Part shown: piece after piece, positions 2,165-60,940 of the stretch
How the letters are laid out: each line of letters starts with the position of its first letter
Numbering within the stretch: position 1 is the stretch's first letter
Assembly (NCBI GenBank): GCA_964577465.1
Contig: CAZNZF010000002.1
Coordinates: 1,336 to 65,335 of the forward strand
Source of the DNA: an uncultured bacterium
Lineage (GTDB): Bacteria; RBG-13-66-14
DNA length: 64,000 nt
Reading direction: 5' to 3'
Program-made: the position numbers and the translations under genes
Notes under the pieces: generated by a model
Database searches by the model: none
What the model was told of the DNA's origin: nothing
The model's input: only the letters and a program-made list of their open reading frames with translations

Positions 2165-2172
2165 AGGACTCG

Positions 2173-5524: not shown

Positions 5525-5542
5525 AGACCGACAGGGGGGTTC

Positions 5543-7524: not shown

Positions 7525-7539
7525 GAATTTTATAGGTGG

Positions 7540-11004: not shown

Positions 11005-11014
11005 TTGGGTGTTG

Positions 11015-12059: not shown

Positions 12060-12090
12060 CGGCTCACCTCGTTTTCACGGTTCTGGACCG

Positions 12091-13080: not shown

Positions 13081-13169
13081 GGCGCCTCCTGTGTCGCCAC
13101 ATCGTACCAGAGCGCGTCGGCGTAGGCAAGCCGGAGTTTTTCACTCGATTCGCAGTCCGATTTTCCGGT

Positions 13170-14645: not shown

Positions 14646-14715
14646 GCCGGGCTTTTTAGTAAAACCTGACGGGGGCGGTCCTCCGCGGGCCGCCTTCGCT
14701 TGGGTGGAGTCGAGA

Positions 14716-15432: not shown

Positions 15433-15450
15433 GTATTCATTCTAGGTTAA

Positions 15451-25669: not shown

Positions 25670-25758
25670 GCCCCTTTCCGGGGGGTGGGATACCCCGTAA
25701 TACCAATAATTGGGTCAACTTTCAGTATTTTGATTCTAGCAGAACGCAAACTCCGAGG

Positions 25759-26779: not shown

Positions 26780-29653
26780 ATGACGTATATAGAGAAATTG
26801 CCACCCGAGTTCCGCCATCCGGCCGGGCTTTCCGGTCGCCGGAAGTACAGGCTGGTCAACGACCTTCCCGGTGCTGACCCCGGTCTGGACCGCATCTTCG
26901 AGGAGAGCCTGAACGTTGCCCGGCGCAGGGCTTTTCTCGTCGAGTGTGCCGGGGAGATGGGGGGCGACGGCGCCGCCTTTCGGGATGCGCTGGCCGACTT
27001 CGCGCGCGCGGCCGGGTTCAGGGTGATCCGAACCGCCGACCGGGGCGGGGTGGTGGAACCCCTGAGCCTGGCCAGGACGATCGTGGAGGGGTTCACCCCC
27101 TGGACGGAACTGGGTGAATCGCTCCCCACCGGGCTGGCGGAAAATCTCCACCTTATCGAGGAAGGCTACGCCGGAGACGTCGAAGGAAAAACCGGGGACG
27201 ACGAGCCTGATCCGACCGGTCTGCGCTGGACCCGGGTGGATTATACCATCGAGCTTCTCGGACGGGTCATGGAAGGGCCCACGGCGGTTTTCGCGGACAA
27301 CGCCGAGGGTGGAGGAGACCTGGAAACCCTGGCCGTTCTGGAAAGGCTGATGAGCGAGAGGAGCCACACGCCTCTTCTTCTGGTTTTGGGGGGGATAGGC
27401 GGCGCGGTCTCCTCCGAGTATTTTGACCGGGTGGACAGCCTCCACCTGCGCTACCTGCCCCAGGTCCGGTCCGAGGAGTTGGGGAGCCTCGGCGGGGAGC
27501 TGGGTCGGAGACTGAACCCGGGGCAGTTCGAGCATTACCTGGCGGAACTGCCCCGGAGCAGGATTCACGCCGAGCAGCTGCGGGCATTCTACGAGTTGGA
27601 CCTGGAAGGTGTGTTCGAGGAACGCCTGCTCACGTCGAAAACCCCCATCCAGCTCTTCATGTACCGCTGGGAGGGGCTGAAGGAGGAGGAAAAGAAGGTC
27701 CTGTGCGTCCTGGCCGGAGAGGCGCGCCCACAGTCGACGGAGGGCGTCGCGCGGGGCACCGGCTTCGGAAAGAAAAACGTGGAGAAGCTGCTGGGCGGGC
27801 TGACGGGGAAATTCTTCTGCGAGCGGGTGGGCGCGGCATACACACTCAGGGTGCCGCGTTTCGGCGGGTGGATAGCCGATTTCGCCGGTGAGATGATGGA
27901 CGACGTGCACCGGGCCTGGCTGTCCACGGAGGTCGAACCGGGGCGGAGCTTTGTCGAGGATTTTTTCCGGGTGAAGCGCCTCTCGGCCGTCGGTCGAGAC
28001 GACGAGGCCCTGACCGGAATGGTGGATGTTCTGAGGCGCCTGCACCGATCGGGCTTCTTCCCCACCATCTGCTCCCTGGAGCCCCTCGCGGAAGGAATCG
28101 CGTCCAGGGGCCGGGACAAAGGGTTGAGCCTTGAGGCCCGATTGAAACTCGCCCAGGCCGACATCGAGCTCCTCCGGTTCGATTCGGCTTTACGGCTTCT
28201 GGACATCGTCCGGGAATCGCTCTCGGCGGAGGACGACCCCTTCGCGGGTCGGGAGAGTCTCCTCCGGGGGGCCGTCCACGAGGCGAGGGGTGAGAACGAC
28301 GACGCGGTCCGGTGCTTTCGGGAGGCCGCGAAGCGGTTCGGTGAAACGCGGGAGGGGGCGCTGGCCCTTCGCCGGGCCGTGGACATCCAGGACACCCTCG
28401 GCGACCTCGAGCGGGACGGGTCTCTGGTGGACGAGCTGATGGGCTTTCCCGAGCGGGATGGCATCGGGTATGTGAAGAAGCTGATGAAGGCCAAGCACCT
28501 GAAGCGGGGCGGGAAGCTCGAGGAGGCGGGGGAAATCCTCGCCGACCTGGTCAAGGCGGTCAAGCGCGGCGGCATCACCTGGCTGGGAGTGTCGCCCGAG
28601 ATAGACCTGGGCAACCTCAACCGGCACATGGGGCGGCTGGAGGAGGCCGCGAAACTGCTCGGTGGGGCGGCGGAACGGGCCCGGCTCAGGGGTGACCTGC
28701 GGGGGTTGGCCGACGCCAAGTTGGGCCTGGCCGATATCCTCTACCTGCAGGGGCGCTTCGGTGAGGCGGCGGACCTCCACCTGGAATGCCTGCCGATATT
28801 CGACAGGGTGAGGGCGCCCTACGAGCGGATGACCATCCTGAACAACCTCGGCATGATTTACCTGAACTGGGGGAGGCTGGAGTCCGCCCTCGACTGCCTG
28901 GAGCGGTGCCGGGCGTACTTCGTCGGCACGCGTTACACGGCCTACCTCAACGCCGTGGAGCTGAACCTGGGGCTGGCGATGGTGAACCTGGGGCTGGCGG
29001 CCGAGGCGCTGACCACCCTGGACGGGCTCAAGGTCAGGCTGTCCGAGGAGAGTCCCTACCGCCGCATCCTGCTCTTCGTCATGGGTCGGGTGGCCCGGGA
29101 GCAGGAAAATCTCGTACTGGCCGAGGACCTCATGACGAAGGCGCTGGGCGGATTCCAGGAAACGTCCATGCTGGGTTGGGAGCTGAAGGCCCTCCAGCAT
29201 CTGGCTGAAATCATGGTGATGACCCAACGGCCGCAACGGGCGAAGGAGCTTATCGAAGAGGCCCTGCCCCGATTGGAGGGCCTGGGCTCGGACGTGCACC
29301 GGGCGGGTTTCCTGCAGGGGCTGGCGGAGGCCGAGCTGGCGCTGGGCGACGCCGACAAGGCCCTGGACCTGGCCCGGCAGGCCATGGTGCTCGACGAGAA
29401 GAGCGGCAATCCCGTCCACCAGGCCCTGCTGTATCACCTGATGGGACGCGCCCATCTGGCCCAGGGGGACAAGAAGGCGGCGAAAAACTCGCTCAAGAGT
29501 GCCTTGGACGAGCTGGAGGGGGTTCTGGGCGACCTGACGCAGGCCGGGCACCGGCGGTCCTTCCTCAGCCGTCCGGTCGTGCGGAATCTGTTCGCCACGG
29601 CCACGATGCTTTCCGTGAGCCTGGACCGGCGGAGGTTCGAGGAGGGGAGATAG
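26780..29653 (+). CDS. Large TPR-repeat protein with N-terminal non-TPR (possible STAND/MalT-like) region
   Basis: 957 aa. The C-terminal half carries many TPR helices (ILNNLGMIYLNWGRLESALDCLERC...). No clear Walker A motif was seen in the N-terminal half. Confidence 0.65.
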   Translation: MTYIEKLPPEFRHPAGLSGRRKYRLVNDLPGADPGLDRIFEESLNVARRRAFLVECAGEMGGDGAAFRDALADFARAAGFRVIRTADRGGVVEPLSLARTIVEGFTPWTELGESLPTGLAENLHLIEEGYAGDVEGKTGDDEPDPTGLRWTRVDYTIELLGRVMEGPTAVFADNAEGGGDLETLAVLERLMSERSHTPLLLVLGGIGGAVSSEYFDRVDSLHLRYLPQVRSEELGSLGGELGRRLNPGQFEHYLAELPRSRIHAEQLRAFYELDLEGVFEERLLTSKTPIQLFMYRWEGLKEEEKKVLCVLAGEARPQSTEGVARGTGFGKKNVEKLLGGLTGKFFCERVGAAYTLRVPRFGGWIADFAGEMMDDVHRAWLSTEVEPGRSFVEDFFRVKRLSAVGRDDEALTGMVDVLRRLHRSGFFPTICSLEPLAEGIASRGRDKGLSLEARLKLAQADIELLRFDSALRLLDIVRESLSAEDDPFAGRESLLRGAVHEARGENDDAVRCFREAAKRFGETREGALALRRAVDIQDTLGDLERDGSLVDELMGFPERDGIGYVKKLMKAKHLKRGGKLEEAGEILADLVKAVKRGGITWLGVSPEIDLGNLNRHMGRLEEAAKLLGGAAERARLRGDLRGLADAKLGLADILYLQGRFGEAADLHLECLPIFDRVRAPYERMTILNNLGMIYLNWGRLESALDCLERCRAYFVGTRYTAYLNAVELNLGLAMVNLGLAAEALTTLDGLKVRLSEESPYRRILLFVMGRVAREQENLVLAEDLMTKALGGFQETSMLGWELKALQHLAEIMVMTQRPQRAKELIEEALPRLEGLGSDVHRAGFLQGLAEAELALGDADKALDLARQAMVLDEKSGNPVHQALLYHLMGRAHLAQGDKKAAKNSLKSALDELEGVLGDLTQAGHRRSFLSRPVVRNLFATATMLSVSLDRRRFEEGR

Positions 29654-35982: not shown

Positions 35983-36594
35983 CTAGGGCAGGAAGACTTC
36001 CACGTCCAGCACCTCGTTGGTGTCCGTGTCCACGGCCACGTTCGCCTGACCCTGGAAATCCTCGGGGACGAAAACGAGAGCGCACCAGTTGGTGGTGCCG
36101 GGGAAGTCGTCCCCGTCGTAAGGCTCGACGACCAGGCTCCGTGGAATCCAATCGGGGTAGCCCTCATCGGTCAGGGCGGCGGCGGCGGCCTCCACCCAGG
36201 GCCCGGCGTCGTCATAGTCGGGCAGGCCCACCAGGGGAAGGCTGGAATCGGTTTCCCACTGCGCGTCGGTCGAACCGTCGTACTGGACCACTACGATCAG
36301 GACGTCCTCGTCGGATCCGCCCGGGAGCTCGGCGTAGTAGAACTGCCAGGGCAAGTTCTCCTCGGGCTCGCCGTCATCGGTTACATCGATGCAAGCGATG
36401 TTGAACAGTTCGCCGTCGGGCATCTCCGCGTCGCGGACGGCGTCGGCCAGGTTGATACCCCAGCCGAGGCCGTGGCCGTCCCCATCGCCGTCCCCATCAC
36501 CGCCTCCGTCTCCCGTGGAGCTGGCACAGCCCGCAACGAGGGCCAGAACGAGGGTGCAGAGCAGTGCGAGGAGGGTTTTTATCGAACTTCTCAT
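35983..36594 (-). CDS. Hypothetical acidic lipoprotein with (GD)n low-complexity linker
   Basis: Lipobox LVAGC. A GDGGGDGDGDGDGHG run encoded by tandem hexanucleotide repeats. Confidence 0.55.
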   Translation of the reverse strand: MRSSIKTLLALLCTLVLALVAGCASSTGDGGGDGDGDGDGHGLGWGINLADAVRDAEMPDGELFNIACIDVTDDGEPEENLPWQFYYAELPGGSDEDVLIVVVQYDGSTDAQWETDSSLPLVGLPDYDDAGPWVEAAAAALTDEGYPDWIPRSLVVEPYDGDDFPGTTNWCALVFVPEDFQGQANVAVDTDTNEVLDVEVFLP

Positions 36595-41106: not shown

Positions 41107-42762
41107 GTGGCTGAAACCGGTACCCTGACGGACGGCGTGAAGCGCGACCGGATTTTCTGGTGGGCGCTGTTGGCCCTGGAGGTTTTTTTCTGCGTCGTCA
41201 TCCTGGGCGACCTGAGCAACTACACCATCGATGACGGCTACATCTATCTGAACGGCGCCCGGCAACTGGCCCGGGGTGAGCTGCCCAACATGACGCCGGG
41301 CGAGGCCCCGACCGACGCCTGGGGCAGTTACCTGTGGCTTTTAATGCTCACCCCCGCGTACCTGTTGGGAGCGAATCCCCTGTTCTGGGCCAAGGCGCTG
41401 GGGTTCCTGTTCCTCCTCGGCGGGGTGTGGTGGATTTCGCTGCTTTTCAGGCTCTGGCGTCCGGCGATGAGCCGCTTGGAGTCACTGGCGCTGGCCGGTT
41501 TGGTGCTGGCCTTCGTCCCGGCGGTTTACGGGTCGGTCAACGTCCTGGAAACCGGGTTCCACCTCTTCGCCCTCCTCACGGCGCTTTACCTGTTGGTGCG
41601 CGATGTCGCGAGGAAGAGGCCCGGCCTGCCGTTCGGCCTCTCGTTGAGCCTTCTGCTCGTCAGCCGCCCCGACGCCTTCATCGAGGTAATCCTCTTTCTG
41701 GCAAGCTATCTCTGGCTGTCACTCCGGCGCGAGTCGCCCTTCATCAGGCGTGACGTGTGGCGACCGTTTCCCGGCCTCGTTCCCGGCATTCTGTTCTGGG
41801 CGGCGATAGTATTAATTTACGGCACCCTCCTGCCCACCAGCGCGCTGGCGAAGACGCCGGCTTTATCCTTCCTCCTGTCGTTTGTATGGCTGCGCAATTT
41901 CGAAGGTGCCATCGTGGAGATGGCATACACGCCCGTCCTGGCACCCGCCATCATCGGCGCCTTCGTGTTCATTTTCCGCCGGAGGGGTGAGAAGCCGATC
42001 CCGCCCATCCGCTTCCTCCTCGCCGCCATCATCCTCTGGGGGCTGGCGGAGATGATGGTGATAATGGACTGGACCATGGTGAACCGGCTGTGGGTCAGCA
42101 AGGGGGTGATGGCCATAGCCTGTTCGACGCTGCTGCTGTACGATCTGGTCGAGAAGCTGCATTCCCGGTTCATCGCCGCCACGCTTTTCTGCATCGGGCT
42201 GATGGGGGGCCTGTGGGGGTGGCGGTTCCACGTGTTCAACTACTTCGACAAGACCCACTGTCCGGCCCGGGTGATGGGAGAGCTCATCAATGAGCTGAAG
42301 CTGCCCGATTCCTGGCTGGCGACGCCCGACATGGGTATATTGCCGTACCGGGGCGACATCCCGACCGTGGATACCTGCCTGTCCCCGGTGTGCAGCCGAT
42401 ACATGCTCGAACACCCGGAAGATGTGGATTACGTCTGGTCGCACAAGGTGGATTTCGTGGTGATCTGTTCGATCTACATGAATCCGGCGGAGGCGGGGGG
42501 CGTTCGCTTCGGTATTCCCGACTTCATGTACAAGAGTGATTACTTCGTCGAGCACTTCCGGCCGGTGATGGTGGCGGAGGGGGCCGTGCCCTTGACCCTG
42601 GACTATTATTGTGAAAACCTGGGGCACTACTTCCACCTCTACGTTTCCGACCGCATCGACTACGATGCGCCGGCCCCCGTGCCCGTTTACCTGCGCGGGT
42701 TGGCGGCGCTACCGGTGCATTACCCGTATCTCAATCTTGTCATAGGGGATTGGATGCGGTAG
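41107..42762 (+). CDS. Polytopic membrane protein, GT-C glycosyltransferase-like architecture (paralog 1 of 3)
   Basis: ~13 TM helices. Conserved first-loop motif DDGYIYLNGARQLARGELP. C-terminal ~165 aa soluble domain (DSWLATPDMGILPY...VWSHKVDFVV...YFHLYVSDRI). Confidence 0.6.
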   Translation: MAETGTLTDGVKRDRIFWWALLALEVFFCVVILGDLSNYTIDDGYIYLNGARQLARGELPNMTPGEAPTDAWGSYLWLLMLTPAYLLGANPLFWAKALGFLFLLGGVWWISLLFRLWRPAMSRLESLALAGLVLAFVPAVYGSVNVLETGFHLFALLTALYLLVRDVARKRPGLPFGLSLSLLLVSRPDAFIEVILFLASYLWLSLRRESPFIRRDVWRPFPGLVPGILFWAAIVLIYGTLLPTSALAKTPALSFLLSFVWLRNFEGAIVEMAYTPVLAPAIIGAFVFIFRRRGEKPIPPIRFLLAAIILWGLAEMMVIMDWTMVNRLWVSKGVMAIACSTLLLYDLVEKLHSRFIAATLFCIGLMGGLWGWRFHVFNYFDKTHCPARVMGELINELKLPDSWLATPDMGILPYRGDIPTVDTCLSPVCSRYMLEHPEDVDYVWSHKVDFVVICSIYMNPAEAGGVRFGIPDFMYKSDYFVEHFRPVMVAEGAVPLTLDYYCENLGHYFHLYVSDRIDYDAPAPVPVYLRGLAALPVHYPYLNLVIGDWMR

Positions 42763-42848
42763 GTACTTGCGGGGGACCGTCTTTATTAAGAGCGACGACG
42801 GCAGAGCGGATCGAGCCATAAAAAATCGAACTTTTTTCACGACTCTCC

Positions 42849-42877
42849 TTGCCAATAAGCGAATCTTGGACTATATT
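42849..42877 (+). promoter_or_regulatory. Sigma70-like promoter (TTGCCA-17-TATATT) for secreted protein gene
   Basis: TTGCCA at 42849-42854, 17-nt spacer, TATATT at 42872-42877. AAGGAGG RBS precedes the ATG at 42909. Confidence 0.45.
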
Positions 42878-42908
42878 ATCGCCGTAGCGTTTGCGATAAA
42901 GGAGGCTC

Positions 42909-43487
42909 ATGTACCGTCATATTCTGCTGATATTAATCGTGTTTGCATCGTTCGCCTCCGCCGAGGTCCTCTTTTTCGAGGATTTTTCCGACGGCGGAAT
43001 GCCCGGCTGGACCCAGGACCCCGGTGAAATAGGACAACGCTGGATAGTCAGCTCACAGCACTTCTTCAGCGGTCCCTTCGGCGTTATTTGCGAAAAGGGT
43101 CGGGACCAGGATGAGCGGCTGATTTCACCAGGCATCTGCCTCACATCGGACGTGGTAATCGACTTCTACTGGGCCACGAGCTACACCTGGTTCGTTTCCC
43201 CCCACGACAACGGGGACTACAGCCTGGAGATTCGCGAGGCCGGTGGACCGGGCGAGTGGTCGGAAATCTGGAACGAGGCGGAGTTCGGGTCGTTCGAAAA
43301 CTGGGTGTGGAACGAAACCAAGGTCGGGATTGGCGGTTACTGGGACGGCCACGACGTTCAGTTCGCATGGCGTGTCGTCTCCGACAAGGCCGCCGACGTT
43401 TGGCTCGACACGATTACGGTTACCGCCGGTGATTCTTCGGACGTCCAGGAGACGAGCTTCGGGGTCATCAAGGCCACCTTTCGCTGA
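42909..43487 (+). CDS. Small secreted protein of unknown function
   Basis: Signal peptide MYRHILLILIVFASFASA. 192 aa, Trp/Asp-rich. Own promoter and RBS. Terminator at 43503-43531. Confidence 0.55.
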   Translation: MYRHILLILIVFASFASAEVLFFEDFSDGGMPGWTQDPGEIGQRWIVSSQHFFSGPFGVICEKGRDQDERLISPGICLTSDVVIDFYWATSYTWFVSPHDNGDYSLEIREAGGPGEWSEIWNEAEFGSFENWVWNETKVGIGGYWDGHDVQFAWRVVSDKAADVWLDTITVTAGDSSDVQETSFGVIKATFR

Positions 43488-43502
43488 TTTGGGTTCTCTC
43501 AC

Positions 43503-43531
43503 GAGGGCGGCTTCCGGCCGCCCTTTTTTTT
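43503..43531 (+). terminator. Rho-independent terminator
   Basis: GAGGGCGGCTTCCGGCCGCCC followed by a T8 run. Confidence 0.6.
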
Positions 43532-43641
43532 CGATTCCACCGCGGTCCGTCCCGATTCACCCGGGCTCGGTCCCGGCGTGGTAAGATATATCCCTTGCTT
43601 GGACCGGACGACGTTTTCACGGAAGACCCGCGAGGCTGACG

Positions 43642-45420
43642 ATGGCCGCTGTTGAAGCCGAATTGACGGACCGGACTAGGGGGACCCGGTATCTCACCTG
43701 GGGCCTCATCGCCCTCGAACTCGTCCTGTGCGCCTTCATCGTCTGGGACCTGTCCGGATACACCCCCGACGACGTCTACATCTACCTGAACGGGGCCCGT
43801 CAACTGGCCGGCGGTCGACTACCGAGCATGACGCCGGGCGAGGTCCCCACCAACGCCTGGTCCAGCCTTTTGTGGGTGGGGCTTGTCACGCCGGCCTACT
43901 GGCTCGGCGTCGACGCCCTGGTCTGGGCCAAGGTGCTCGGTTTCATCCTGCTCCTGGGAATCGTCTGGCAGATTGCGCGGATAATCGGGCTCTTCCACCC
44001 CAAGCTCGACCAGGCGACCGTCTGGGCCGTCGCCGGGCTGGCGCTCACCTACATGCCGCTGGTCTTTTGGGCCACGAGCGGCATGGAGACTATTTTCTAC
44101 GTCTTCAGCCTGGTGTTGGTCTTCCGCCTGCTCCTGAGGGACACTTCGCAGAAACGGCTGTCCGTGGGCCTGGGGCTCGCCCTGTCGGTGCACCTGGTCA
44201 CCCGGCCCGACGCCTTTATCAACGTGGCCCTCGTGCTGATGCTCCTGGTGGTTCTCGTGTTGAATCCCCGGCGGACCTATTCCTGGTCGGGTCTTGTGCG
44301 CCCCGCCCTCGGTCTGCTTCCGGGAATCGTGCTGTTCCTCCTGCCCGGCCTCTTCTACCCGACCGTACTTCCGACCAGCGCCCTGGCGAAGGCCGGCGTT
44401 ATAGGCCCCCTCTTCAATGACCAATTCTGGTGGAACTTCCGCGAACTGGTCCTGAACTTTTCGCTCACGCCGGGAAATATTTTCATCTTAGCCGGGATGC
44501 TTATATTTTTATTCTGGCGCCGCCAGCGGGGTGACCTGAGCTGCGGCTGGGAGATGCGGGTCTTCGTAGTCCTGTTGGTCGCGATGCACCTGGGCGAAAG
44601 GGTGCTGGTGAGTGACTGGATGGCGGTTCAGCGCCTGTGGCTGGAATCGGCGGTAATCGCGCTCGTCGTTTGTCTTTTGGCGTTCATCCGTCTGATGGAA
44701 AAGAAAAAATATCTCTTGATATCCGCCATTATTCTGTGCGGCAGCCTGGCGGCGGGGCTGCTCGGTTGGCGGATGTTTATCTTCGACTTTTTCCACCACC
44801 CCGGCAATCCCGCCGAGGTGATGGCGCAGTTCGTGGGCGAGCTGAAGAGGGACGACTCGTGGATGATCACCACCGATATGGGTGTCGTGCCCTATTTCGC
44901 CGAAATCAATACGATAGACGCCGAAGCCGTTCCCATATGCAACTATCACCTCATGAAAATGCCGAATGACCTCGCCTACGTGTGGAGTCATCAGATTGAT
45001 TTCATCGTCGTCACCTCTCCCTGCCTGACTGCGCCCCGACCGGAAGCTACCCAGTACCGCCTGGTGAGGGACATAATGAGCCAGAGGTACTTTCGGGACA
45101 ACTACCGCCACGTGTTGAGCGCCGTGTGGGCCTCACCGTTCAATCACGGGCACGGGACCCTGCGGTCGTATCCGGGCAGGTACTACCACCTGTTCGTCTC
45201 GAATCGGATTGAATGCGACCTGCCCAGCCCCCCGATCCTGTTGATGAAGGATATTTACCACACGCGACCCATTGCCGCGGAAGTCGTCCTGCCCGTGGAG
45301 CTCCCACCGGCGTACACCGAAAACGGCGTCGTTCCCGCCGTCCCCGACGAGCCGCTGCCCGGGTATTTTGTCCCGTCGAATCCGGGAACCGACCGTCCCG
45401 GTGACTCCGCCTCTCCTTGA
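43642..45420 (+). CDS. Polytopic membrane protein, GT-C glycosyltransferase-like architecture (paralog 2 of 3)
   Basis: DDVYIYLNGARQLAGGRLP; LVTRPDAFI; YPTVLPTSALAK; DSWMITTDMGVVPY...VWSHQIDFIVV...YHLFVSNRI. Confidence 0.6.
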   Translation: MAAVEAELTDRTRGTRYLTWGLIALELVLCAFIVWDLSGYTPDDVYIYLNGARQLAGGRLPSMTPGEVPTNAWSSLLWVGLVTPAYWLGVDALVWAKVLGFILLLGIVWQIARIIGLFHPKLDQATVWAVAGLALTYMPLVFWATSGMETIFYVFSLVLVFRLLLRDTSQKRLSVGLGLALSVHLVTRPDAFINVALVLMLLVVLVLNPRRTYSWSGLVRPALGLLPGIVLFLLPGLFYPTVLPTSALAKAGVIGPLFNDQFWWNFRELVLNFSLTPGNIFILAGMLIFLFWRRQRGDLSCGWEMRVFVVLLVAMHLGERVLVSDWMAVQRLWLESAVIALVVCLLAFIRLMEKKKYLLISAIILCGSLAAGLLGWRMFIFDFFHHPGNPAEVMAQFVGELKRDDSWMITTDMGVVPYFAEINTIDAEAVPICNYHLMKMPNDLAYVWSHQIDFIVVTSPCLTAPRPEATQYRLVRDIMSQRYFRDNYRHVLSAVWASPFNHGHGTLRSYPGRYYHLFVSNRIECDLPSPPILLMKDIYHTRPIAAEVVLPVELPPAYTENGVVPAVPDEPLPGYFVPSNPGTDRPGDSASP

Positions 45421-45607
45421 GAGCGTGCCGCCCGGCGGCGCGCGATGACCGGCGGGGTTGGGCGGAGGCCGCTTGCCGACGAATCGAGCCCGAGGGCGGG
45501 ATCTGCAGCCCTTTATTCGCGGCTCCTTCAACAACGGGATGGACCGCCTCTTTTGGGCGTGTTCTAACGTGTTACAATTACCGGAGTGTCCACGCGGGAG
45601 ACGGAAA

Positions 45608-47242
45608 GTGCGTCTACTGTCCGCGGTCCGGGAAATCCGGGGCATCTGGTGGCTGGTCATCGCCGTGGAAATCGGCCTGGCCCTCGTCGTAATTTACGAG
45701 CTGGGGGCCTACTCCTTCGACGACGCCTACATCTACCTCTCGGGGGCGCGGCAGCTTTCGCGGGGCGAGTTGCCCAACCCGAGCGCCGGCGACGGAAAGC
45801 TCCCCACCAATTCCTTCTCCAGCCATCTATGGCTTCTTCTGCTGGCCCCCGCCTTCTGGCTCGGCATCCAACCGCTGGTCTGGGCCAAGGCGCTGGGCTT
45901 CCTGTTTCTCCTCCTGTCGGTGTTCCAGGCCGCGGGGATTCTGCGCCGACTGCGACCCACGTTCTCCCACGGTTCATCCCTCGCCCTGGCCGGGGTCTTC
46001 CTCGTCTTCACCACGTCGCTCCTCGGTTCGGTGAACGGCCTCGAGACGGCGCTGAACCTCTTCTCCATCCTCCTTCTGCTCCGCTTCGCGCTCCGGGATT
46101 TCCTGCGCGACAAGCTCAGCACGGCCCTGGGCCTGGCCGCCGGGTTGCACCTGGTCACCCGGCCGGACGCCTTCATCGACCTCGTCGTGCTGGGGATCGT
46201 CGTCGGCTGGTGCTGGGCGTCGAAGCGGTCGGGCATCGGCTGGCGCGACGTGCTGCGGGTCAAGCTGGGAGCGCTTCCCGGCCTGGTTTTCTTCGTCGCC
46301 GTGGCGCTCGTCTACTGGCAGATTCTGCCCACCAGCGCCGGGGTGAAGGTTCCCGCGTTGGAGGTGATGTTCAGTCTCTGGGGCTTCAAGGAGGGCTTTC
46401 TCCGGGTCTTTTGGGATTTTATCCGCACGCCCGGCCTCGCCCTGGTTTATGCCGGTTTCATCTACTTCCTGGTCCGGCGCAGGAAGGGGGGGGAGGACGG
46501 GAGTGGTGCGGAACGGACTCCACGGCTGACCACCCCTCTCCGGCTGCTCCTCGTCGGGCTGGCCCTGGACCACCTCGGCGTCCTGTTCTTTGCCGGCGAC
46601 CCCATCGGAGTGGGCCGCCTGTGGCTCCCCTCGGCCGCCACGGCCCTGGTTTGCACCCTGGCAGTGCTTCCCGCGTTCTTCCACCGGCGCCGGGGGCTGG
46701 CCGTCGGCACCCTCCTGCTCGGTTTCACCCTCTGGGCCGGATTTCTGGGCTGGTGGTCCTACGTGGTTTACCACTACAACCACCCCGGCTCGCCCGCGGA
46801 GCGGCTTGGGGAGTTCATCGCCGAGACGAAGCTCCCCGACTCCTGGCTGGTGACCATGGACATGGGGGTCGTGCCCTACTTCGGGGACCTTCCGACCATA
46901 GATTCCCACGACCGCCCCAAGTGCAACCGGTACCGGACGGCGAATCCCGGTGACCTGGACTACATCTGGCAAAAACCGGTGGACTTCGTGGTCCTCATCA
47001 CCCAGACGCCCGAGCCGGAAACGGGCTTCATCTACCACGGCGTCAATCAACATCTCTCCGCCGACGAGTGGTTCGACCGCTTCCGGGAGGTGCTGGTCGC
47101 GGAGTGGCGTCCGCCGGTGAATCTCGATTCTCTCCTGAGCAACGCCGGTCGCTACTTCCACCTCTACGTCTCGGATAGAATCCGGTGCGGAATCGAGGAG
47201 CCGATTCTGCTGCTGCGCGGCATTCCCGAATCGGGGCTGTGA
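45608..47242 (+). CDS. Polytopic membrane protein, GT-C glycosyltransferase-like architecture (paralog 3 of 3; alternative ATG start at 45539)
   Basis: DDAYIYLSGARQLSRGELP; LVTRPDAFI; ILPTSAGVK; DSWLVTMDMGVVPY...IWQKPVDFVV...YFHLYVSDRI. The GTG start was chosen by alignment to the paralogs. Confidence 0.55.
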   Translation: MRLLSAVREIRGIWWLVIAVEIGLALVVIYELGAYSFDDAYIYLSGARQLSRGELPNPSAGDGKLPTNSFSSHLWLLLLAPAFWLGIQPLVWAKALGFLFLLLSVFQAAGILRRLRPTFSHGSSLALAGVFLVFTTSLLGSVNGLETALNLFSILLLLRFALRDFLRDKLSTALGLAAGLHLVTRPDAFIDLVVLGIVVGWCWASKRSGIGWRDVLRVKLGALPGLVFFVAVALVYWQILPTSAGVKVPALEVMFSLWGFKEGFLRVFWDFIRTPGLALVYAGFIYFLVRRRKGGEDGSGAERTPRLTTPLRLLLVGLALDHLGVLFFAGDPIGVGRLWLPSAATALVCTLAVLPAFFHRRRGLAVGTLLLGFTLWAGFLGWWSYVVYHYNHPGSPAERLGEFIAETKLPDSWLVTMDMGVVPYFGDLPTIDSHDRPKCNRYRTANPGDLDYIWQKPVDFVVLITQTPEPETGFIYHGVNQHLSADEWFDRFREVLVAEWRPPVNLDSLLSNAGRYFHLYVSDRIRCGIEEPILLLRGIPESGL

Positions 47243-47333: not shown

Positions 47334-48518
47334 ATGCGCCGCTGGCTCATCCTGGTCGTCGTGGTGCTGGTCCAGCTCTGCATCGGCGGGATTTACGCCT
47401 GGAGCAACCTGGCGCGAGCCCTGACCGACGAGTACGGCCTCTTCGAGTGGCAGGCCCAGCTCATCTTCGGGGTGAACATCGCGGTCTTCGCCCTGACGAT
47501 GCTCTTCGCGGGACCGCTACTGGATCGGCGGGGTCCGAGGACGCCCATCCTGATCGGAGGCATTCTATTCGCGGCCGGCCTCTTGGTGGCGTCCTTCTCC
47601 CAGGGGTCCTTCATCGTGCTCCTGGTCGGGTATGGCGTAATAGCCGGCGCGGGCATCGGGTTCGTTTACCTCTGCCCGATTTCAACGGCGGGGCGTTGGT
47701 TCCCCAAGCGTAAGGGGTTGGTGACCGGCGTGGCCGTCGCCGGTTTCGGAGGGGGGGCCGTCATCCTGTCGGGCCTCATCGAGGTTCTCCTGGATTCCGG
47801 TCTCAGCCCCCTGGACATCTTCCTCTGGATTGGAATTATCTACGGCGCCGTTATCCTGTCAGGCGGATTCGTGCTGGCCAACCCGCCGGACAGCCCGCCG
47901 CCGCCGGCACGTCACGAAATCCCCCGCGTCCGGCGCGACCCGCGGTTCTGGCGTCTCTTCGGGACCATGTTCGCCGGGACCTTCGCGGGCTTGCTGATAA
48001 TCGGCAATCTCAAACGTATGGGGCTTTCCGGCGGCGCGGAGGAGATCATCGCGGCCTCGTCCGTCGGCGCCCTGGCGGTGGGTAACGCGATGGGCCGCAT
48101 CGGCTGGGGGTTCATCGCCGACCGATTCGGCCGGAGGTTGGCCAGTGTGCTCTCCCTGTCGCTGCTGGCCGTTTCCATCCTCTTGCTGCTGCCCACCGCC
48201 GGAGCGGGGTGGGCGTTCCTTCTGGTTGCGGCTTGCGTGGGCTTCAACTTCGGCGCGGCCATGGTCCTCTACGCCACGCAGACCTCCGATGTTTATCGAC
48301 CGGTGAATTTCGGGCGCATATATGCCTTCGTATCGCTGTCCTACGGCCTTTCCGGCACGACGGGCCCCTTCGTCGGGGGGCTGGTTTACGATCTTACCGG
48401 CGGGTATTGGCCGGCGGTCATGATCGCGGCCGCCATCGCCCTGGGGGGTGCCCTGTATTACGCCGCCATGGGGCGGGGAATCCACAGGCTTGCCCTGGAC
48501 GAATCCGCGGTGGATTGA
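47334..48518 (+). CDS. MFS transporter (OFA-like)
   Basis: 12 TM helices. GPLLDRRGPR loop. Confidence 0.8.
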   Translation: MRRWLILVVVVLVQLCIGGIYAWSNLARALTDEYGLFEWQAQLIFGVNIAVFALTMLFAGPLLDRRGPRTPILIGGILFAAGLLVASFSQGSFIVLLVGYGVIAGAGIGFVYLCPISTAGRWFPKRKGLVTGVAVAGFGGGAVILSGLIEVLLDSGLSPLDIFLWIGIIYGAVILSGGFVLANPPDSPPPPARHEIPRVRRDPRFWRLFGTMFAGTFAGLLIIGNLKRMGLSGGAEEIIAASSVGALAVGNAMGRIGWGFIADRFGRRLASVLSLSLLAVSILLLLPTAGAGWAFLLVAACVGFNFGAAMVLYATQTSDVYRPVNFGRIYAFVSLSYGLSGTTGPFVGGLVYDLTGGYWPAVMIAAAIALGGALYYAAMGRGIHRLALDESAVD

Positions 48519-48541
48519 GTCGCCGGGGGGGTGCTTTGGAT

Positions 48542-49279
48542 ATGGAATGGTGGGAGACGTTCTTCGACGACGTCTGGCTCGAGGGCGGCTTCGGTCCCGC
48601 GGGCGCCGAGGCCCCGGTGGAAGAGATAGATTACCTCTGGCGGCAGTTGAAGCTACGCCCGGGGTCACGGCTGGCCGACATCTGCTGCGGCATCGGGCGG
48701 CACTCCATCCCCCTGGCGCGTCGGGGGGTGGAGGTGACGGGGGTGGATTTCTGCCCAAAATATCTCGAACGGGCCGAAGAGAGCGCCCGTGGATTGCCGG
48801 CGGCCTTCGTCCGCGCCGACATGCGCGAGACGGGCCTGGGGACGGGCGCCTTCGACGCGGTCATCAACATCTGGACCAGTTTCGGCTACTTCGCCGACGA
48901 GGACGAGAACGAGAGGGCGATGGTCGAATGGTCCCGGCTCCTGCGTCCCGGCGGCCGCCTGGTCATGTCCCTGGTCAACCGGGACGGACTCATGCACAAT
49001 TTCCAGCGGAAGCGGGGCGACGCCAGGCTCGGGTGGCTCCTTGCGGAGGAGTCCGAGCCGGATTACCTCACCGGTCGCATGACCGGCCGCTGGCTCTGGG
49101 TCTCACCCTCCGGGGAGCGCCACGCCCGGGAGATTAACCTCCGCAATTACGCCGTCCACGAGCTGGTCCGTATGGGCGCGCGGCACGGCCTGGAGATAGT
49201 GGATGCCCACGGCGACCTTCTAGGAGAGCCGGCCGGGCGCGAGCACACGCACATGTACCTGACCTTCGAGCGGGCCTGA
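48542..49279 (+). CDS. Class I SAM-dependent methyltransferase
   Basis: Motif I LADICCGIGRHS. Motif II/III LLRPGGRLVMS. Confidence 0.75.
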   Translation: MEWWETFFDDVWLEGGFGPAGAEAPVEEIDYLWRQLKLRPGSRLADICCGIGRHSIPLARRGVEVTGVDFCPKYLERAEESARGLPAAFVRADMRETGLGTGAFDAVINIWTSFGYFADEDENERAMVEWSRLLRPGGRLVMSLVNRDGLMHNFQRKRGDARLGWLLAEESEPDYLTGRMTGRWLWVSPSGERHAREINLRNYAVHELVRMGARHGLEIVDAHGDLLGEPAGREHTHMYLTFERA

Positions 49280-49456: not shown

Positions 49457-52207
49457 TTACCGGGCGATGATGAACCGCTGGGTGAGCACGCCTTCATCAG
49501 CCACCAGGCGGATGATGTACACGCCCGCGCTGGCACTGTTGGAATCCCAGGCCAAGGTATGCCGGCCCGCGGTCAGCTCGCCGGTCTGGATGGTGGAGAC
49601 GCGGCGTCCGGCCAGATCGAAGACGGCCAGCGTCACGTCCTGCGTCTCGGGCAGGGTGAAGGCGAAGTTGACCCTGCCGGATGTCGGGTTCGGGAAGGGA
49701 CTCTCGAGCGCCAGGGCCATGTCGGCGGTCGGACGGTATGACGCCTCGGCGGGGCCGTAGGAGACCGTGGTTCCGTCGGGTTTGATGGCCTCGATGTAGT
49801 AGTCGTAGTCGCCTTCCGCGGGTCGGTCGAGCCAGGCTCCGATGGTGCCGCCCTGGAGCGATTCGGTGTTGAGGCGGAGCCTTGAGCTGTCGCCTTGCTC
49901 GGCGCGGTAAATGTTGAAGCCGGCAAAGCCGGAGTCCGCGGTCCAGGTCAGCATGACGCCGTCCGAGGTGATTTTGGTTTCGATGGCGACCCAGGAGGCA
50001 CTCTCTTCGGGCACGCTCACCTGGATGTCGTCCACGTACCAGCCTTCGTTCGTTATATCATCGGAGTCGGAGACGAACCGGAATCGCAGTTGCACCACCG
50101 TGTCGGCGTAGGCGGTCAGATTGAGTACCCACTCCTGCCACGTGTACTGGGTGCCGTCGTGATTTTTTATCTGGAGCCAGCCGGAGCCGTCGTTGATATC
50201 GACATAGCCCATGTCTTGAGCGAACTGCAGCTCGTACCAGGTCCAGTAGCGCAGCTCCGCGGCGGCGGGGTTGATGTACACCGGCGGCGAGTAGAGGCAG
50301 GCGTTGATGTCTTTGACGTAATCGTCGCTCCCCATGCCCCCGCATTTCCACGAGTGTGAGGGTGAGTGCGAGCGGTAGTCGTCGACGTGCCATGCGTCGT
50401 TGTCGCCGTTATGGGTCCAGTACCACTCACCGCTCTCGACGTCGTCGTCTATCATATCGGCCGGCGAGAAGAGGGTGAAGAAGAGGTCCTGGGAGTCGAA
50501 GCCCTGGGATTGCACCGTCAGGGTGAACTCGAAGGAGTTGGGGGACCCGGACCCGGCGCTCACGTCGAAGCCGAAGGTGGAGGAACCGGAGTCGCCGGCG
50601 GGGATGGTGCCGAAATCTCCGTCGCCGTCGGTGATGGTGACGTCGGGGCTGGAGCAGGTGAGGGTGCCCGTGGTGCTCGGACCGGAGCCCTCACCCACGT
50701 TGTTGATGGTCACCTCGATTTCGATGGACTCACCGGGCTCGATGAGGCCGTCGGAGTCGGTGTCCGAGGTGACGGCCACGTCGCCGAGCTCGAAGCTGGG
50801 CTCCTCGGGGGACGGGGTCAGGGATTGCACCGCGGCCAGGACGTCTATGCGTCCCGAGCCGTAGTCGTTGTCCTTGCCCGCATCACCCAGGTCGATGGCG
50901 GTGTCCTCCAGGACCTGTTTCAGCTCCGCGGGGGTCAGCGTGTAGTCGGCGTCCAGCAGGAGGGCACAGGCGCCGGCGACGTGGGGGGTCGCCATGGAGG
51001 TGCCGTTCCACCCGTCCTGGTACGCGGTGTCCGAGGAGACGTAGCAGCTCTTGATGTTGACGCCGGGGGCGGACACGTCGGGCTTGATGCAGTCTTCGCT
51101 GCCCCATTCGTCGGTGGGGCCGCGGCTGGAGAATCCGGCGATGACATCGCCGGAGTCGGTGGCGCCCACGGTGATGACTTCGGGCACGTTGCCCGGGGTG
51201 CGCAGCGTCATGGGGCCGGGCCCCTCGTTGCCGGCGGCGATGACCAGGGCGGTGCCGGCGGCGATGGCGTTCTGGGCGTTGGTGCGCCACGTGGGCTTAT
51301 CCGGATTCCAGGAGTCGATCCAGCCCAGGGAGTTGGAGACCACGTCCGCGCCGAAATCCACGGCCCCCTGCCAGGAGGCCCACACGGACAGCTCGCCCTG
51401 GTGGTTGCCGTACATGTAAAGGCGGTGGGCGCCGTAGTTGTATTCGGGCGCCACGCCGGCCTGGGTCCCGGCGGTGCCGTCGGAGCCCACGCTGCCCGCG
51501 CAGTGCGTGCCGTGCTCCTCACCGGACGAGAAATAGGGGTCGGGGTCGTTGTCCGCGTAGTCGTAGCTGATCGAGGGGTCGTAGTGGCTGGCGAGGTCGT
51601 GGTGTGTGTAGCGCTGGCCCGTGTCTCCGATTACTACGGAGACGCCCGCGCCGGTGTAACCCAGGTCCCAGACGGCGGGGGCGTTGACCTTATCCACCCC
51701 CCAGGCGATCTCGCGGCCGTTGTCGTACACGGTGAGGGGTTCGGCGCTCTCGCCGGCCTTGAATCCGAGCCCGATCCACTGACCGTCGCCGTCGGCGCCG
51801 CGGGTGATGCGGGCCACCTCGGGCCGTTGGGCCACCTCGAGGATGGCCTTCGGGGTCAGCTCGGCGTAGACGAAGTTGGAGATCCAGAACGGGCGGTAGG
51901 CGCCCACCGAACCGTTGGTCTGGTTGGCGGTCAACCATCGCAGCAGGCCCTCCTGCTCGGTCGAGGCCACGTTCTTGAGCCAGCCGGTGACGGCCGCCCG
52001 GGCCTCGTCCCGCGTGCGGCCCAGCCAGAGTTGGGCCGTCGTCGCCCGGTCGAGCTGGGTCTGCAGGGTGATGTAGCAGGGGAGCAACTCATTATCGGTG
52101 CTCGTGGCCACGTAGCCCTGGAGGTAATCGGTTAGCTTGGCCTCGGGCTCCACGGCCATGGAGCTGAAGGCTAAAACTAATGCCAACAATATCAATATCT
52201 TCCGCAT
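49457..52207 (-). CDS. Secreted subtilisin-like serine protease (S8) with C-terminal T9SS-type sorting/FlgD-Ig-like domain
   Basis: Signal peptide MRKILILLALVLAFSSMA. Catalytic triad motifs VIGDTG, HGTHCAG, GTSMATPHVAG. C-terminal TLAVFDLAGRRV...GVYIIRL typical of a Por-secretion CTD. Confidence 0.8.
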   Translation of the reverse strand: MRKILILLALVLAFSSMAVEPEAKLTDYLQGYVATSTDNELLPCYITLQTQLDRATTAQLWLGRTRDEARAAVTGWLKNVASTEQEGLLRWLTANQTNGSVGAYRPFWISNFVYAELTPKAILEVAQRPEVARITRGADGDGQWIGLGFKAGESAEPLTVYDNGREIAWGVDKVNAPAVWDLGYTGAGVSVVIGDTGQRYTHHDLASHYDPSISYDYADNDPDPYFSSGEEHGTHCAGSVGSDGTAGTQAGVAPEYNYGAHRLYMYGNHQGELSVWASWQGAVDFGADVVSNSLGWIDSWNPDKPTWRTNAQNAIAAGTALVIAAGNEGPGPMTLRTPGNVPEVITVGATDSGDVIAGFSSRGPTDEWGSEDCIKPDVSAPGVNIKSCYVSSDTAYQDGWNGTSMATPHVAGACALLLDADYTLTPAELKQVLEDTAIDLGDAGKDNDYGSGRIDVLAAVQSLTPSPEEPSFELGDVAVTSDTDSDGLIEPGESIEIEVTINNVGEGSGPSTTGTLTCSSPDVTITDGDGDFGTIPAGDSGSSTFGFDVSAGSGSPNSFEFTLTVQSQGFDSQDLFFTLFSPADMIDDDVESGEWYWTHNGDNDAWHVDDYRSHSPSHSWKCGGMGSDDYVKDINACLYSPPVYINPAAAELRYWTWYELQFAQDMGYVDINDGSGWLQIKNHDGTQYTWQEWVLNLTAYADTVVQLRFRFVSDSDDITNEGWYVDDIQVSVPEESASWVAIETKITSDGVMLTWTADSGFAGFNIYRAEQGDSSRLRLNTESLQGGTIGAWLDRPAEGDYDYYIEAIKPDGTTVSYGPAEASYRPTADMALALESPFPNPTSGRVNFAFTLPETQDVTLAVFDLAGRRVSTIQTGELTAGRHTLAWDSNSASAGVYIIRLVADEGVLTQRFIIAR

Positions 52208-52406
52208 GGAGCCCCCATTGGCTTGTGTTTCGTTATCGTTAAGGTTGGCCTGAGTAAAGCTACAACCTTCACCAGCTAAACTAGCGGAAAAAATCCTAAT
52301 TGTCAAATTTAACTTCGAGCGTGAAAGGATTGATAGCTCTGCCTTTTGCCGATGTATCACCCCGGAGATAAAGAGAGGTCCTTATTATTGAACGCAAGAT
52401 ACGTGC

Positions 52407-52453: not shown

Positions 52454-53755
52454 TTAATCGCCGCCGGCGCTGGCGATGCGCTCCAGCTTGCTCACCAGGG
52501 CGGCCGTATCGGCGTCGTTTTCCACCACGTCGCGGATTTTATTGTAGCTGTGGATGACGGTGGAGTGGTCGCGTCCGCCGAACTGGAGCCCGATTTCGTG
52601 GAGCTTCGCGTCGGTCAGGTTTCTCGCCAGGTACATGGCCACCTGCCGCGGGAAGACGACCGAGGCGTTGCGCGTTTTGGACAGAAGCTCGCCCAGCGCC
52701 ACCTCGAAGTGGTCGCAGACCACCCGCTGAATCGTACCGATGGAGACCCGGGGGGTCTCGCGGCCGAGGATGTTGGACAGAACCTCGCGGGCCATCTTGG
52801 CGGAAATCGGCTGCTCGCTGATGGCGCTGAAGGCCGACAGCCGCAGAATCGCCCCCTCGATGGTGCGGATGTTCGACCGCACCCGCTGGGCGATGAGGTC
52901 GACCACCTCGTCGGGAAGGTGGATGCCCTCGTTCTCGGCCTTGGCCTGGATGATGGCGATGCGGGTTTCGATGTCCGGCGGTTGGATGTCGATGAGCAGG
53001 CCCCATTCGAAACGGGTGACCAGCCGTTCGTCGAGCTTTATCTCCGCCGGCGGACGGTCCGAGGTGAATACGATCTGCTTCGAGTTGTTGTACAGGGTGT
53101 TGAAGGTGTGGAAGAGCTCCTCCAGCGTAGCCTCTTTCCCGGCCAGGAACTGGAGGTCGTCGATTAAAAGGATGTCCAGGTTGCGGTACTTGGCCCGCAG
53201 GTCCGAGGAGCGGTCGTAGCGGATGGCTTCGATGAACTCGTTGGTGAACTCCTCGCTGGTGACGTAGGCGGTGCGCAACTCCCTGCGCGACTGGAAGGAT
53301 TCGTGGCCGATGGCGTGCAGAATGTGGGTCTTACCCAGCCCCACGCCGGCGTAGATGAAGAGCGGGTTGTAAATCTGGCCGGGCCGCTCGACGACGGCCT
53401 GGGCTGCGGCGTAGGCGGTGGAGTTGCCGCGCCCGACCACGAAGCTCTCGAAGGTGTACTTGGGGTTGTACGGGTTGCGGGGCGAGATCGGCTTCTTCCC
53501 CCCTCCGTTGTTCCGGGCCACCAGGACGACCTCGAGGTCGCGGCCGCAGACGCTCGCGAACTCCCCCGTTATCTGCTCGAGGTAGGTCGAGCCCAGCCAG
53601 TCCACGTAGCGCTGGTTGGGCACCTCGAGGGTGACGAGGTCCTCGGTCAAGGCCCGGGGCTTTATGAGGGAGATGTAGGATTTGTAATGGTACGGGTCTA
53701 TTCGGGGCTTCAGGTTCCCGGAGACCTGGGCCCAGAGGTCCTTAAGCCGGTCCAT
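52454..53755 (-). CDS. dnaA: Chromosomal replication initiator protein DnaA
   Basis: AAA+ Walker [11 protein letters not shown], Walker [10 protein letters not shown], sensor and domain IV motifs. The start was chosen at MDRLKDLWA. Confidence 0.92.
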
Positions 53756-53850
53756 GATCCTGTGTCCGTTCGTCGTTTGCCGGTTGACGCCGATTGGGGG
53801 ACGGGTTGATTGAGGGGGGGATTGCGTATCGGCTTGCCGCGTCGCGCAAT

Positions 53851-53956
53851 TTGTCCACAAAAACCGCGGACTGTATTTTTGGGTGACTCGTGGCTTTATA
53901 TGGGCCGGGTGCGGAGGCGTGGGGAGTTGTCAACCAAGAGTCGCACGTTATCCACA
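53851..53956. promoter_or_regulatory. DnaA-box region upstream of dnaA (candidate oriC / dnaA autoregulatory region)
   Basis: Perfect DnaA box TTATCCACA at 53948-53956. One-mismatch box TTGTCCACA at 53851-53859. AT-rich stretch in between. Confidence 0.45.
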
Positions 53957-60896: not shown

Positions 60897-60940
60897 AAAA
60901 TCCCCCCGATGGGGCAAGGGGTTAAAACCCCTTGTCGCCG

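Follow-up and report, generated by a model that had tools for sequence, protein, structure and literature searches.

A tandem array of probable AftB-like GT-C glycosyltransferases in Candidatus Coatesbacteria

Organization of the array and its neighbors

In the window, by which we mean the whole 64-kb stretch of DNA analyzed here, three large genes for putative AftB-like GT-C glycosyltransferases, designated c1, c2 and c3 (copies 1 to 3), lie on the plus strand. The c1 gene (positions 41107..42762), identified from its ORF, its paralogy and its residue motifs, encodes a protein of 551 aa, and c2 (43642..45420) encodes one of 592 aa. The c3 gene (45569..47242) lies within an open frame of 594 aa (45458–47242), and comparison with its orthologs placed the true start at the GTG codon at 45569 (557 aa) or at the GTG codon at 45608 (544 aa), in agreement with the length of about 545 aa given for this protein in the original prediction. 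Alignment of the three products showed 150 invariant columns and 39–41% pairwise identity over the full length, and tblastn comparisons between different copy types, in which the window proteins were set against the copies of their relatives, yielded E values of 1e-93 to 1e-122. The three consecutive genes are thus paralogous, as had been proposed, to a degree far beyond chance. All three are labeled “hypothetical” in every source. Scanning the window for Rfam families and tRNAs gave no hits.

The motifs first noticed in the three proteins were recovered to different extents. The sequence DD(G/V/A)YIYL(N/S)GARQL was found in c1, c2 and c3. The internal motif written as LVTRPDAFI is present as LV(S/T)RPDAFI, c1 having Ser instead of Thr. 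In the C-terminal portion, DSW...(T/P/M)DMG..PY is common to all three copies, but the motifs that follow it are looser than originally written, c3 having YIWQK in place of VWSH and c2 reading YYHLFVSNRI.

Between c1 and c2 lies a small gene (42909..43487, plus strand), defined by its ORF and its orthologs, whose product is a secreted, single-domain, choice-of-anchor-J-like protein of 192 aa. Its signal peptide, MYRHILLILIVFASFASA, is followed by EV, with the cleavage site between ASA and E, and contains no lipobox cysteine. The gene had been predicted to carry its own promoter, ribosome-binding site and terminator, and all of these sequence elements were located: a promoter-like site (TTGCCA-17-TATATT, 42849..42877, plus strand), which is a consensus match only, in the upstream intergenic spacer of 48% GC; an AAGGAGG ribosome-binding site; and a strong intrinsic terminator (43503..43535, plus strand) with a 10-bp stem that includes 7 G-C pairs and is followed by a T run. 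The small protein is an independently transcribed neighbor of c1–c3. Its orthologs were found only in Coatesbacteria-type metagenome-assembled genomes (MAGs) and in records of unclassified bacteria or metagenomes. A match to NF038128 (choice-of-anchor J) was obtained for 10 of 15 orthologs (51–85% identity; best E value, 1.2e-8); the window copy did not match this model at E ≤ 1, and Pfam and NCBIfam scans of it gave no match. One ortholog is named choice-of-anchor J at NCBI. Unlike choice-of-anchor J domain proteins, the small protein is a stand-alone combination of a signal peptide and a single domain. Searching the PDB with a profile of the small protein returned only marginal matches to a carbohydrate-binding module (E = 0.05), and BLASTP comparison with the MAM-like region of the S8 protease encoded nearby was not significant (E = 0.84–3.8).

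Downstream of the array, the predicted MFS transporter, SAM methyltransferase and S8 protease were all confirmed by Pfam. The transporter gene (47334..48518, plus strand; MFS_1, E = 4e-35) encodes a protein that resembles transporters of the monocarboxylate, oxalate/formate or L-lactate type and scored 291 bits against the NCBIfam model SfMCT, under the cut-off of 320. It is followed after 20 bp by the gene for a class I SAM-dependent methyltransferase (48539..49279, plus strand; Methyltransf_25 and Methyltransf_11), and both genes are conserved downstream neighbors. The S8 protease carries a Por_Secre_tail domain and is encoded on the strand opposite to the array.

Homology to AftB and predicted structure

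Pfam and NCBIfam scans of c1–c3 matched no model. Two NCBIfam models are related to these proteins, NF041481 (the AftB equivalog; cut-off, 1050 bits) and NF047440 (LA_3751/LA_3752; cut-off, 200 bits); c1–c3 reached neither cut-off and gave no match to either model even at E ≤ 1. A profile of the clade that contains c1–c3 collected 920 proteins at E ≤ 1e-10, aligned nearly end to end, and intermediate relatives matched NF041481 with E values down to 3e-15 (at most 55 bits) and NF047440 with E values down to 7e-15 (up to 55 bits). A 47-sequence superfamily profile that included c1–c3 matched M. chubuense AftB (PDB 9dlf, 9dlf_C) with an E value of 9.4e-41 over AftB residues 32–442, and this was the sole significant match among PDB sequences. 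When the profile was restricted to the clade, a plain HMM search of PDB sequences found nothing and did not reach AftB; hhalign comparison of the clade-only profile with AftB gave a probability of 81.5% and an E value of 1.2e-5 over 247 columns. At the level of sequence profiles, the clade has significant homology to the characterized enzyme AftB.

The structure of c2 was modeled with AF2 from the 47-sequence alignment (pLDDT, 84.5; pTM, 0.87); an earlier model from an 11-sequence alignment was too weak (pLDDT, 59). In a Foldseek search with the c2 model, the top 30 PDB matches were all GT-C enzymes, among which AftB had the lowest rmsd and the highest identity. The original prediction of GT-C-like polytopic glycosyltransferases without a recognized family name had come with two possible refutations, a profile match to a non-glycosyltransferase family and a predicted structure without the GT-C fold. 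The profile searches (Pfam, NCBIfam) gave no match to a transporter or other such family and the model has the GT-C fold, so the prediction passed both tests; a transporter identity for c1–c3 is ruled out by the fold and by the lack of any matching profile. These data clearly identify c1–c3 as GT-C glycosyltransferases. The likeness proposed at the same time, to ArnT, PglB, PMT or AftD, has to be replaced, since the closest characterized relative by both sequence and fold is AftB (CAZy GT89).

In c2, a transmembrane (TM) domain (residues 17–378) is followed by a periplasmic alpha/beta cap (about 385–535) and a disordered tail (538–592), and each copy has a C-terminal cap domain of this kind, about 150 aa long. 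The approximately 13 TM helices counted initially turned out to be 11 TM helices and a pair of juxtamembrane helices that belong to the first periplasmic loop. The juxtamembrane pair, between TM1 and TM2, and a conserved N-terminal 7-TM core place the proteins in the GT-C(A) class. Positive-inside analysis counted 10 K/R in 38 residues of the cytoplasmic loops versus 6 in 106 residues of the periplasmic loops, and predicted that the N-terminus is inside and that the DD loop, the C-terminal domain and all functional residues are on the periplasmic side, in keeping with the periplasmic location that had been put forward for the loop and the C-terminal domain.

The active site of AftB has been described in detail: D62 within the DD motif is the catalytic nucleophile, E172 hydrogen-bonds the sugar, and R221 and R372 bind the donor phosphate, mutants of either arginine being inactive (PMC12041299). 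In the 47-sequence profile alignment, D62, E172, R221 and R372 of AftB correspond to D44, E149, R188 and R331 of c2, and all four equivalents are invariant in c1–c3 and across the alignment. The DD motif as a whole, aligned to AftB D61/D62, is likewise invariant in c1–c3 and in all 47 aligned relatives, and in the c2 model D44 directly precedes helix 45–56, which is juxtamembrane helix 1. The functional residues are D43, D44, E149, R188, K250 and R331 in c2 and DD 42–43, E148, R187, K249 and R327 in c1. Two AftB positions vary, T91 being replaced by Ser or Gly in the copies and T274 by Ser or Thr.

Distribution of the copies and conservation of their surroundings

The clade is confined to Candidatus Coatesbacteria, whose genomes carry one to three copies each at this locus. 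Orthologs specific to each copy occur in other genomes (55–94% identity), versus about 40% identity between paralogs. The first gene of the three-copy array at locus L003 is an ortholog of c1 (55% identity), c1 itself recurs almost unchanged in L005 (99.8% identity) and unchanged in L006; orthologs of c3 (73–94% identity) occur in L001, L007, L010 and L011. The triplication described in the original prediction is therefore real as to the three tandem paralogs, but the orthogroups involved are old, and their members have been lost and duplicated again to different extents in different genomes. Recent amplification in tandem is ruled out by the low identity between the paralogs and by the orthologs that each of them has. 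It appears quite probable that c1, c2 and c3 are anciently diverged paralogs belonging to an AftB-like (GT89-related) GT-C(A) clade specific to Candidatus Coatesbacteria.

This conservation of every orthogroup across genomes also bears on whether the proteins are enzymes at all. They could keep the GT-C fold in a non-catalytic role, as a scaffold or in substrate binding (cf. PIG-U/GAB1), or one copy could be active and the others degenerate. We consider either situation very improbable, given that the three copies and all orthologs retain the DD motif together with the Glu and the two Arg that bind phosphate.

The genes around the array suggest two further readings. In one, c1–c3 would be protein glycosyltransferases (cf. 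PMT, PglB/AglB, DPY19) with secreted or T9SS-sorted proteins as targets, possibly the choice-of-anchor-J protein or the S8 protease; in most genomes the array encloses the gene for the small secreted protein, the T9SS-sorted protease is a conserved neighbor, and a distant relative (L029) is also located beside secreted peptidases. The small protein is, however, absent from the three-copy L003 array and is consequently not an obligate partner, and the protease is on the opposite strand in a region that is syntenic throughout. Furthermore, c1–c3 have sequence homology only to AftB, a polysaccharide-acting enzyme; none of the copies contains WWD, so that the WWDxG motif found in the C-terminal domain of STT3/PglB/AglB is missing, and the Pfam scan of c1–c3 showed no STT3, PMT or MIR domain. 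Protein glycosylation by c1–c3 is accordingly an unlikely reading.

In the other, c1–c3 would make up a single dedicated glycan module together with the MFS transporter, which would export or flip a precursor, and with the methyltransferase, which would modify the sugar. The same-strand order of GT-C gene(s), MFS gene and methyltransferase gene, with gaps of 91 and 20 bp, is indeed kept in the window and in L001, L003, L007 and L010. Little can be read from this order, since all of these genomes come from a single phylum and the synteny extends just as well to the flanking genes (urocanase, S8 protease, dnaA). In addition, the closest relatives of the transporter are L-lactate and oxalate/formate transporters, L011 appears to be without the MFS gene and most of the methyltransferase gene, and neither the unlinked copies in L009 and L012 nor the distant relatives show the MFS/methyltransferase pairing. 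We regard such a module as improbable, and the broader one originally envisaged, which also included the T9SS protease, reduces to synteny of the whole region, urocanase and dnaA included, within a single phylum.

The surroundings of other relatives were compared as well. Those of the unlinked L009 and L012 copies, which include a PAP2 phosphatase gene at a distance of two genes and an upstream gene for a Wzz-type tyrosine kinase, were uninformative. Distant relatives are located in glycan clusters, that in L027 with GT2, acetyltransferase and two GT4 genes directly upstream, and L028 containing a row of genes for PMT, GT87 and three unannotated proteins of GT-C size. In the 64-kb window itself, a search for donor-synthesis or flippase genes (polyprenyl-phosphate glycosyltransferase, GtrA-like flippase, DPA pathway) found none and revealed housekeeping genes, a Kdo transferase and a glycogen synthase only; no further glycan genes linked to the array were found there.

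Proposed function and comparison with known systems

By analogy with AftB, c1–c3 probably build a cell-envelope sugar polymer. They would be inner-membrane enzymes with a cytoplasmic N-terminus, each of which would take a sugar, on the periplasmic face, from a polyprenyl-phosphate-linked donor. The donor phosphate would be held by the two conserved arginines (R188 and R331 in c2), whose conservation with AftB is what suggests a lipid-linked donor, and the sugar would be placed beside E149, the conserved Glu, and D43 and D44 of the DD motif, at the tip of juxtamembrane helix 1, before being passed to the growing envelope glycan, which we favor over protein as the acceptor. The three paralogs most likely add different residues, form different linkages or serve different acceptors, in much the way that the Aft and Emb enzymes share out the steps of mycobacterial arabinan synthesis. 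For Coatesbacteria, a phylum known only from MAGs, the array suggests that envelope glycosylation proceeds in several steps in the periplasm. A more specific proposal is that Coatesbacteria possess a lineage-specific envelope glycan or lipoglycan made by periplasmic AftB-like enzymes from polyprenyl-phosphate pentofuranose or other unusual donors, with the choice-of-anchor-J protein as a glycan-binding or glycosylated partner; we offer it as a speculation with a rather small chance of being correct, which, if true, would place arabinan-like chemistry outside Actinobacteria.

With a threshold of E ≤ 1e-3, the profile search for the AftB-like GT-C superfamily returned over 5,000 cluster representatives. 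Outside Actinobacteria these enzymes form a large, mostly unannotated superfamily, useful for annotation and for tracing the evolution of periplasmic glycan assembly.

Among known systems, no sequence similarity to c1–c3 was detectable for ArnT, PglB/AglB/STT3, PMT, ALG6/9/12, AftA or PimE. The putative Leptospira glycosyltransferases LA_3751/LA_3752 (NF047440) belong to the same broad superfamily as the window proteins; that family is uncharacterized and adds no functional information on c1–c3. Its name is that of two consecutively numbered loci. The instructive comparison is with AftB, the mycobacterial terminal beta-(1->2)-arabinofuranosyltransferase (CAZy GT89; PDB 9dlf/9dlh; NCBIfam NF041481), whose donor is decaprenyl-phosphoryl-arabinose (DPA). 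Like c1–c3, AftB has a GT-C(A) fold with 11 TM helices plus a cap in the periplasm (PMC12041299), a juxtamembrane helix 1 that bears the DD motif at its tip, and the aligned Glu (SG[LM]E), Arg (RP[DE]), (T/S)ALAK and second Arg. There are also differences. The identity is only about 17%, from which the sugar, linkage and acceptor cannot be inferred; c1–c3 are shorter (544–592 versus 669 aa), and the sequence of their C-terminal cap has no detectable similarity to that of AftB. TM3 and TM10 may differ too: in AftB each is split into a helix and a strand (PMC12041299), and the c2 model predicts TM3 as a kinked helix made up of two helices (124–136 and 138–144) and TM10 as one uninterrupted helix, with no strands close to the membrane except two short ones (40–41 and 384–385). 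The hosts differ as well, this one being a candidate phylum of Gram-negative type in which no arabinan is known. The array reveals no new mechanism, but the link to AftB gives the previously unassigned c1–c3 a fold, a topology, four functional residues and a testable reaction type; rather than a new kind of system, they represent a known enzyme class, of which they form an unannotated branch.

Three tandem paralogs and their relatives

All three ORFs of the original prediction were found in tandem on the plus strand: c1 (41107-42762, 551 aa), c2 (43642-45420, 592 aa) and c3, which occupies an open frame at 45458-47242 and, judging from ortholog N-termini, starts at GTG 45569 (557 aa) or GTG 45608 (544 aa). 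Their products share 39-41% pairwise identity over the full length, with 150 invariant columns, and the motifs quoted previously were present in all three, with small deviations from their wording.

No match to c1, c2 or c3 was found in Pfam or NCBIfam. When 5.8 billion protein clusters were searched by word index, only about 10 clear relatives emerged, plus weak matches, one of which carries the JGI label "arabinofuranosyltransferase". An exhaustive HMMER search with a profile of the clade (c1-c3 and close relatives) detected 11 proteins at E<=1e-30, 920 at E<=1e-10 and 5,316 at E<=1e-3, mostly 500-550 aa long and aligned almost end to end, thereby indicating that the clade is narrow but lies inside a large superfamily. 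Ten intermediate proteins gave sub-threshold yet significant matches to two NCBIfam models, NF041481 (AftB, terminal beta-(1->2)-arabinofuranosyltransferase; down to E 3e-15) and NF047440 (LA_3751/LA_3752 family, putative glycosyltransferases; down to E 7e-15). AftB, a mycobacterial cell-wall enzyme, is classified as CAZy GT89 (PMC8476585). In a PDB search, a 47-sequence alignment headed by c2 matched residues 32-442 of Mycobacterium chubuense AftB (cryo-EM structure 9dlf/9dlh) at E 9.4e-41, and nothing else significantly. The clade-only profile did not reach AftB by plain hmmsearch; by hhalign it aligned to AftB with a probability of 81.5% (E 1.2e-5, 247 columns, 27% identity). AftB is the closest characterised relative of the window proteins.

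Gene order and surroundings

Genomes with close relatives were either Candidatus Coatesbacteria or labelled "uncultured bacterium", and the locus is bounded by urocanase at one end and by an S8 protease together with dnaA at the opposite end. The order c1, small secreted protein, c2, c3 was seen in the window and in two contig fragments each spanning part of the array (L005 and L006). Loci L001 and L007 carry the small protein, c2 and c3; L010 carries the small protein and c3; L003 carries one c1-type and two c2-type genes. Extra unlinked GT-C copies occur in genomes L009 and L012. In a neighbour-joining tree (without bootstrap support), c1, c2 and c3 fell into three separate orthogroups, and orthologs were 55-94% identical, as against about 40% for paralogs. 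The array therefore consists of old, diverged paralogs subject to lineage-specific loss and re-duplication; the "tandem triplication" proposed originally stands as three tandem paralogs, but a recent triplication is rejected on these same grounds. In L001 (GCA_004196295.1), a called gene of 75 aa between the small protein and c2 (9757-9984) resembles the c3 N-terminus (44% identity over 90 aligned positions) and probably remains from a copy that was lost or truncated. The unlinked copy in L012, a Coatesbacteria-type MAG, lies at 9992-11626 between two electron-transfer-flavoprotein genes (ETF-domain, 9132-9929; ETF-alpha/ferredoxin, 11960-13138), an odd insertion point, with a Wzz/GNVR tyrosine-kinase gene upstream.

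The 192-aa small protein (42909-43487, plus strand) has a cleavable signal peptide, and its gene is a separate transcription unit, as predicted: a promoter-like site (42849-42877, plus strand; spacer GC 48%) and an AAGGAGG ribosome-binding site precede it, and a strong intrinsic terminator (43503-43525, plus strand) follows. Homologs were found only in Coatesbacteria-type MAGs and in unclassified bacterium or metagenome records. One is named choice-of-anchor J domain protein at NCBI, and NF038128 was matched by 10 of 15 orthologs (best E 1.2e-8), the window copy not being among them. Since it is separately transcribed and missing from the L003 array, the small protein is a frequent rather than an obligate neighbour.

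Downstream, the expected MFS transporter, class I SAM methyltransferase and T9SS-tailed S8 protease were all present, the protease on the opposite strand. Their proposed union with the array in a glycan or glycosylation module is unsupported: the GT-C-MFS-methyltransferase order is conserved, but its surroundings are conserved too, all within a single phylum; the MFS gene is apparently missing from L011; and the MFS protein is nearest to lactate and oxalate/formate transporters. The array is surrounded by housekeeping genes (for NusA, IF-2, MiaA, ferritin, urocanase and DnaA), and no donor-synthesis or flippase gene was found within the 64-kb window. Distant superfamily members are located in glycan clusters: one (L027) has GT2, acetyltransferase and two GT4 genes upstream, and another (L028) lies in a row where PMT and GT87 genes stand with three of GT-C size that lack annotation. 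This row (2015-9554, in a Chloroflexi MAG) consists of five same-strand genes in succession, all of GT-C type or size: PMT/PMT_2, GT87 and the three without annotation (517-568 aa), of which one is a superfamily member; tandem GT-C rows are therefore not special to Coatesbacteria.

The S8 protease carries a T9SS sorting tail, and its ORF (49457-52360, minus strand) spans 967 aa when read from a GTG codon. Its signal peptide (MRKILILLALVLAFSSMA) starts at residue 52, and the true start is probably ATG 52207, giving 916 aa, which fits the 918-aa ortholog in L001. The protein also matches weakly an InhA-like MAM domain. Because dnaA (52454-53860, minus strand) is situated some 5 kb downstream from the array, the locus is probably close to the chromosomal replication origin; cumulative GC skew rises across the entire window, with no clear turning point. 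Elsewhere, miaA is flanked by genes for a 1017-aa HEAT-repeat protein (22696-25749, minus strand) and a 957-aa TPR protein (26780-29653, plus strand); a second HEAT-repeat protein is encoded near the unlinked copy in L009. Two minus-strand ORFs of 564 aa (59481-61175) and 203 aa (35983-36594) have coding-like GC3 and no Pfam match. GC content dips to 0.57 at 14001-16000, versus about 0.65 elsewhere; the coincident 14646-16007 segment (about 1.4 kb) holds no ORF passing the coding filter, and Rfam and tRNA scans found no match in the low-GC stretch.

Fold, active site and comparison with AftB

A shallow alignment gave a poor model (pLDDT 59) and a deeper one a confident model of c2 (pLDDT 84.5, pTM 0.87), with which the best 30 Foldseek matches in the PDB were all GT-C enzymes. 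The original GT-C reading is thus upheld: the model has the GT-C fold, and no profile of a non-glycosyltransferase family matched. When the helices of the model were taken as TM segments, cytoplasmic loops contained 10 K/R in 38 residues versus 6 in 106 for periplasmic loops, and the C-terminal alpha/beta domain (about 385-535) lay on the periplasmic side, as did all functional residues. This charge bias and sidedness indicate an N-in topology with 11 TM helices and two juxtamembrane helices, which accounts for the earlier count of about 13 TM helices: the total was right, but only 11 are transmembrane.

AftB has 11 TM helices together with a cap in the periplasm; the catalytic nucleophile, D62, belongs to a DD motif located at the tip of juxtamembrane helix 1, E172 hydrogen-bonds the sugar, and R221 and R372, mutants of which are inactive, hold the donor phosphate (PMC12041299). 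Mapped through the 47-sequence profile alignment, AftB D61 and D62 correspond to c2 D43 and D44 (DD), E172 to E149 (SGMET), R221 to R188 (TRPDAF) and R372 to R331 (QRLW). All five c2 residues, and likewise K250 in LPTSALAK, are invariant in c1-c3 and in all 47 sequences, and AftB T91 and T274 have conservative replacements. In the c2 model, helix 45-56, equivalent to juxtamembrane helix 1, starts directly after D44.

The best-supported reading is that a sugar would be moved in the periplasm from a polyprenyl-phosphate donor onto an envelope glycan, with c1, c2 and c3 each having a distinct specificity. What the analysis shows is the fold, the homology, the topology and the conserved functional residues; the donor, the acceptor and how the paralogs share the work are inferred. 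The three proteins are new, phylum-restricted GT-C glycosyltransferases related to AftB, in a class that is already known, and the chief value of the assignment is annotation. They are not AftB equivalogs: NF041481 (cut-off 1050 bits) does not match them, identity to AftB is about 17%, their cap sequence is different, and the split TM3 and TM10 of AftB are not seen in the c2 predicted model. In fold and active site, sequence and model suggest that c1-c3 work like AftB.
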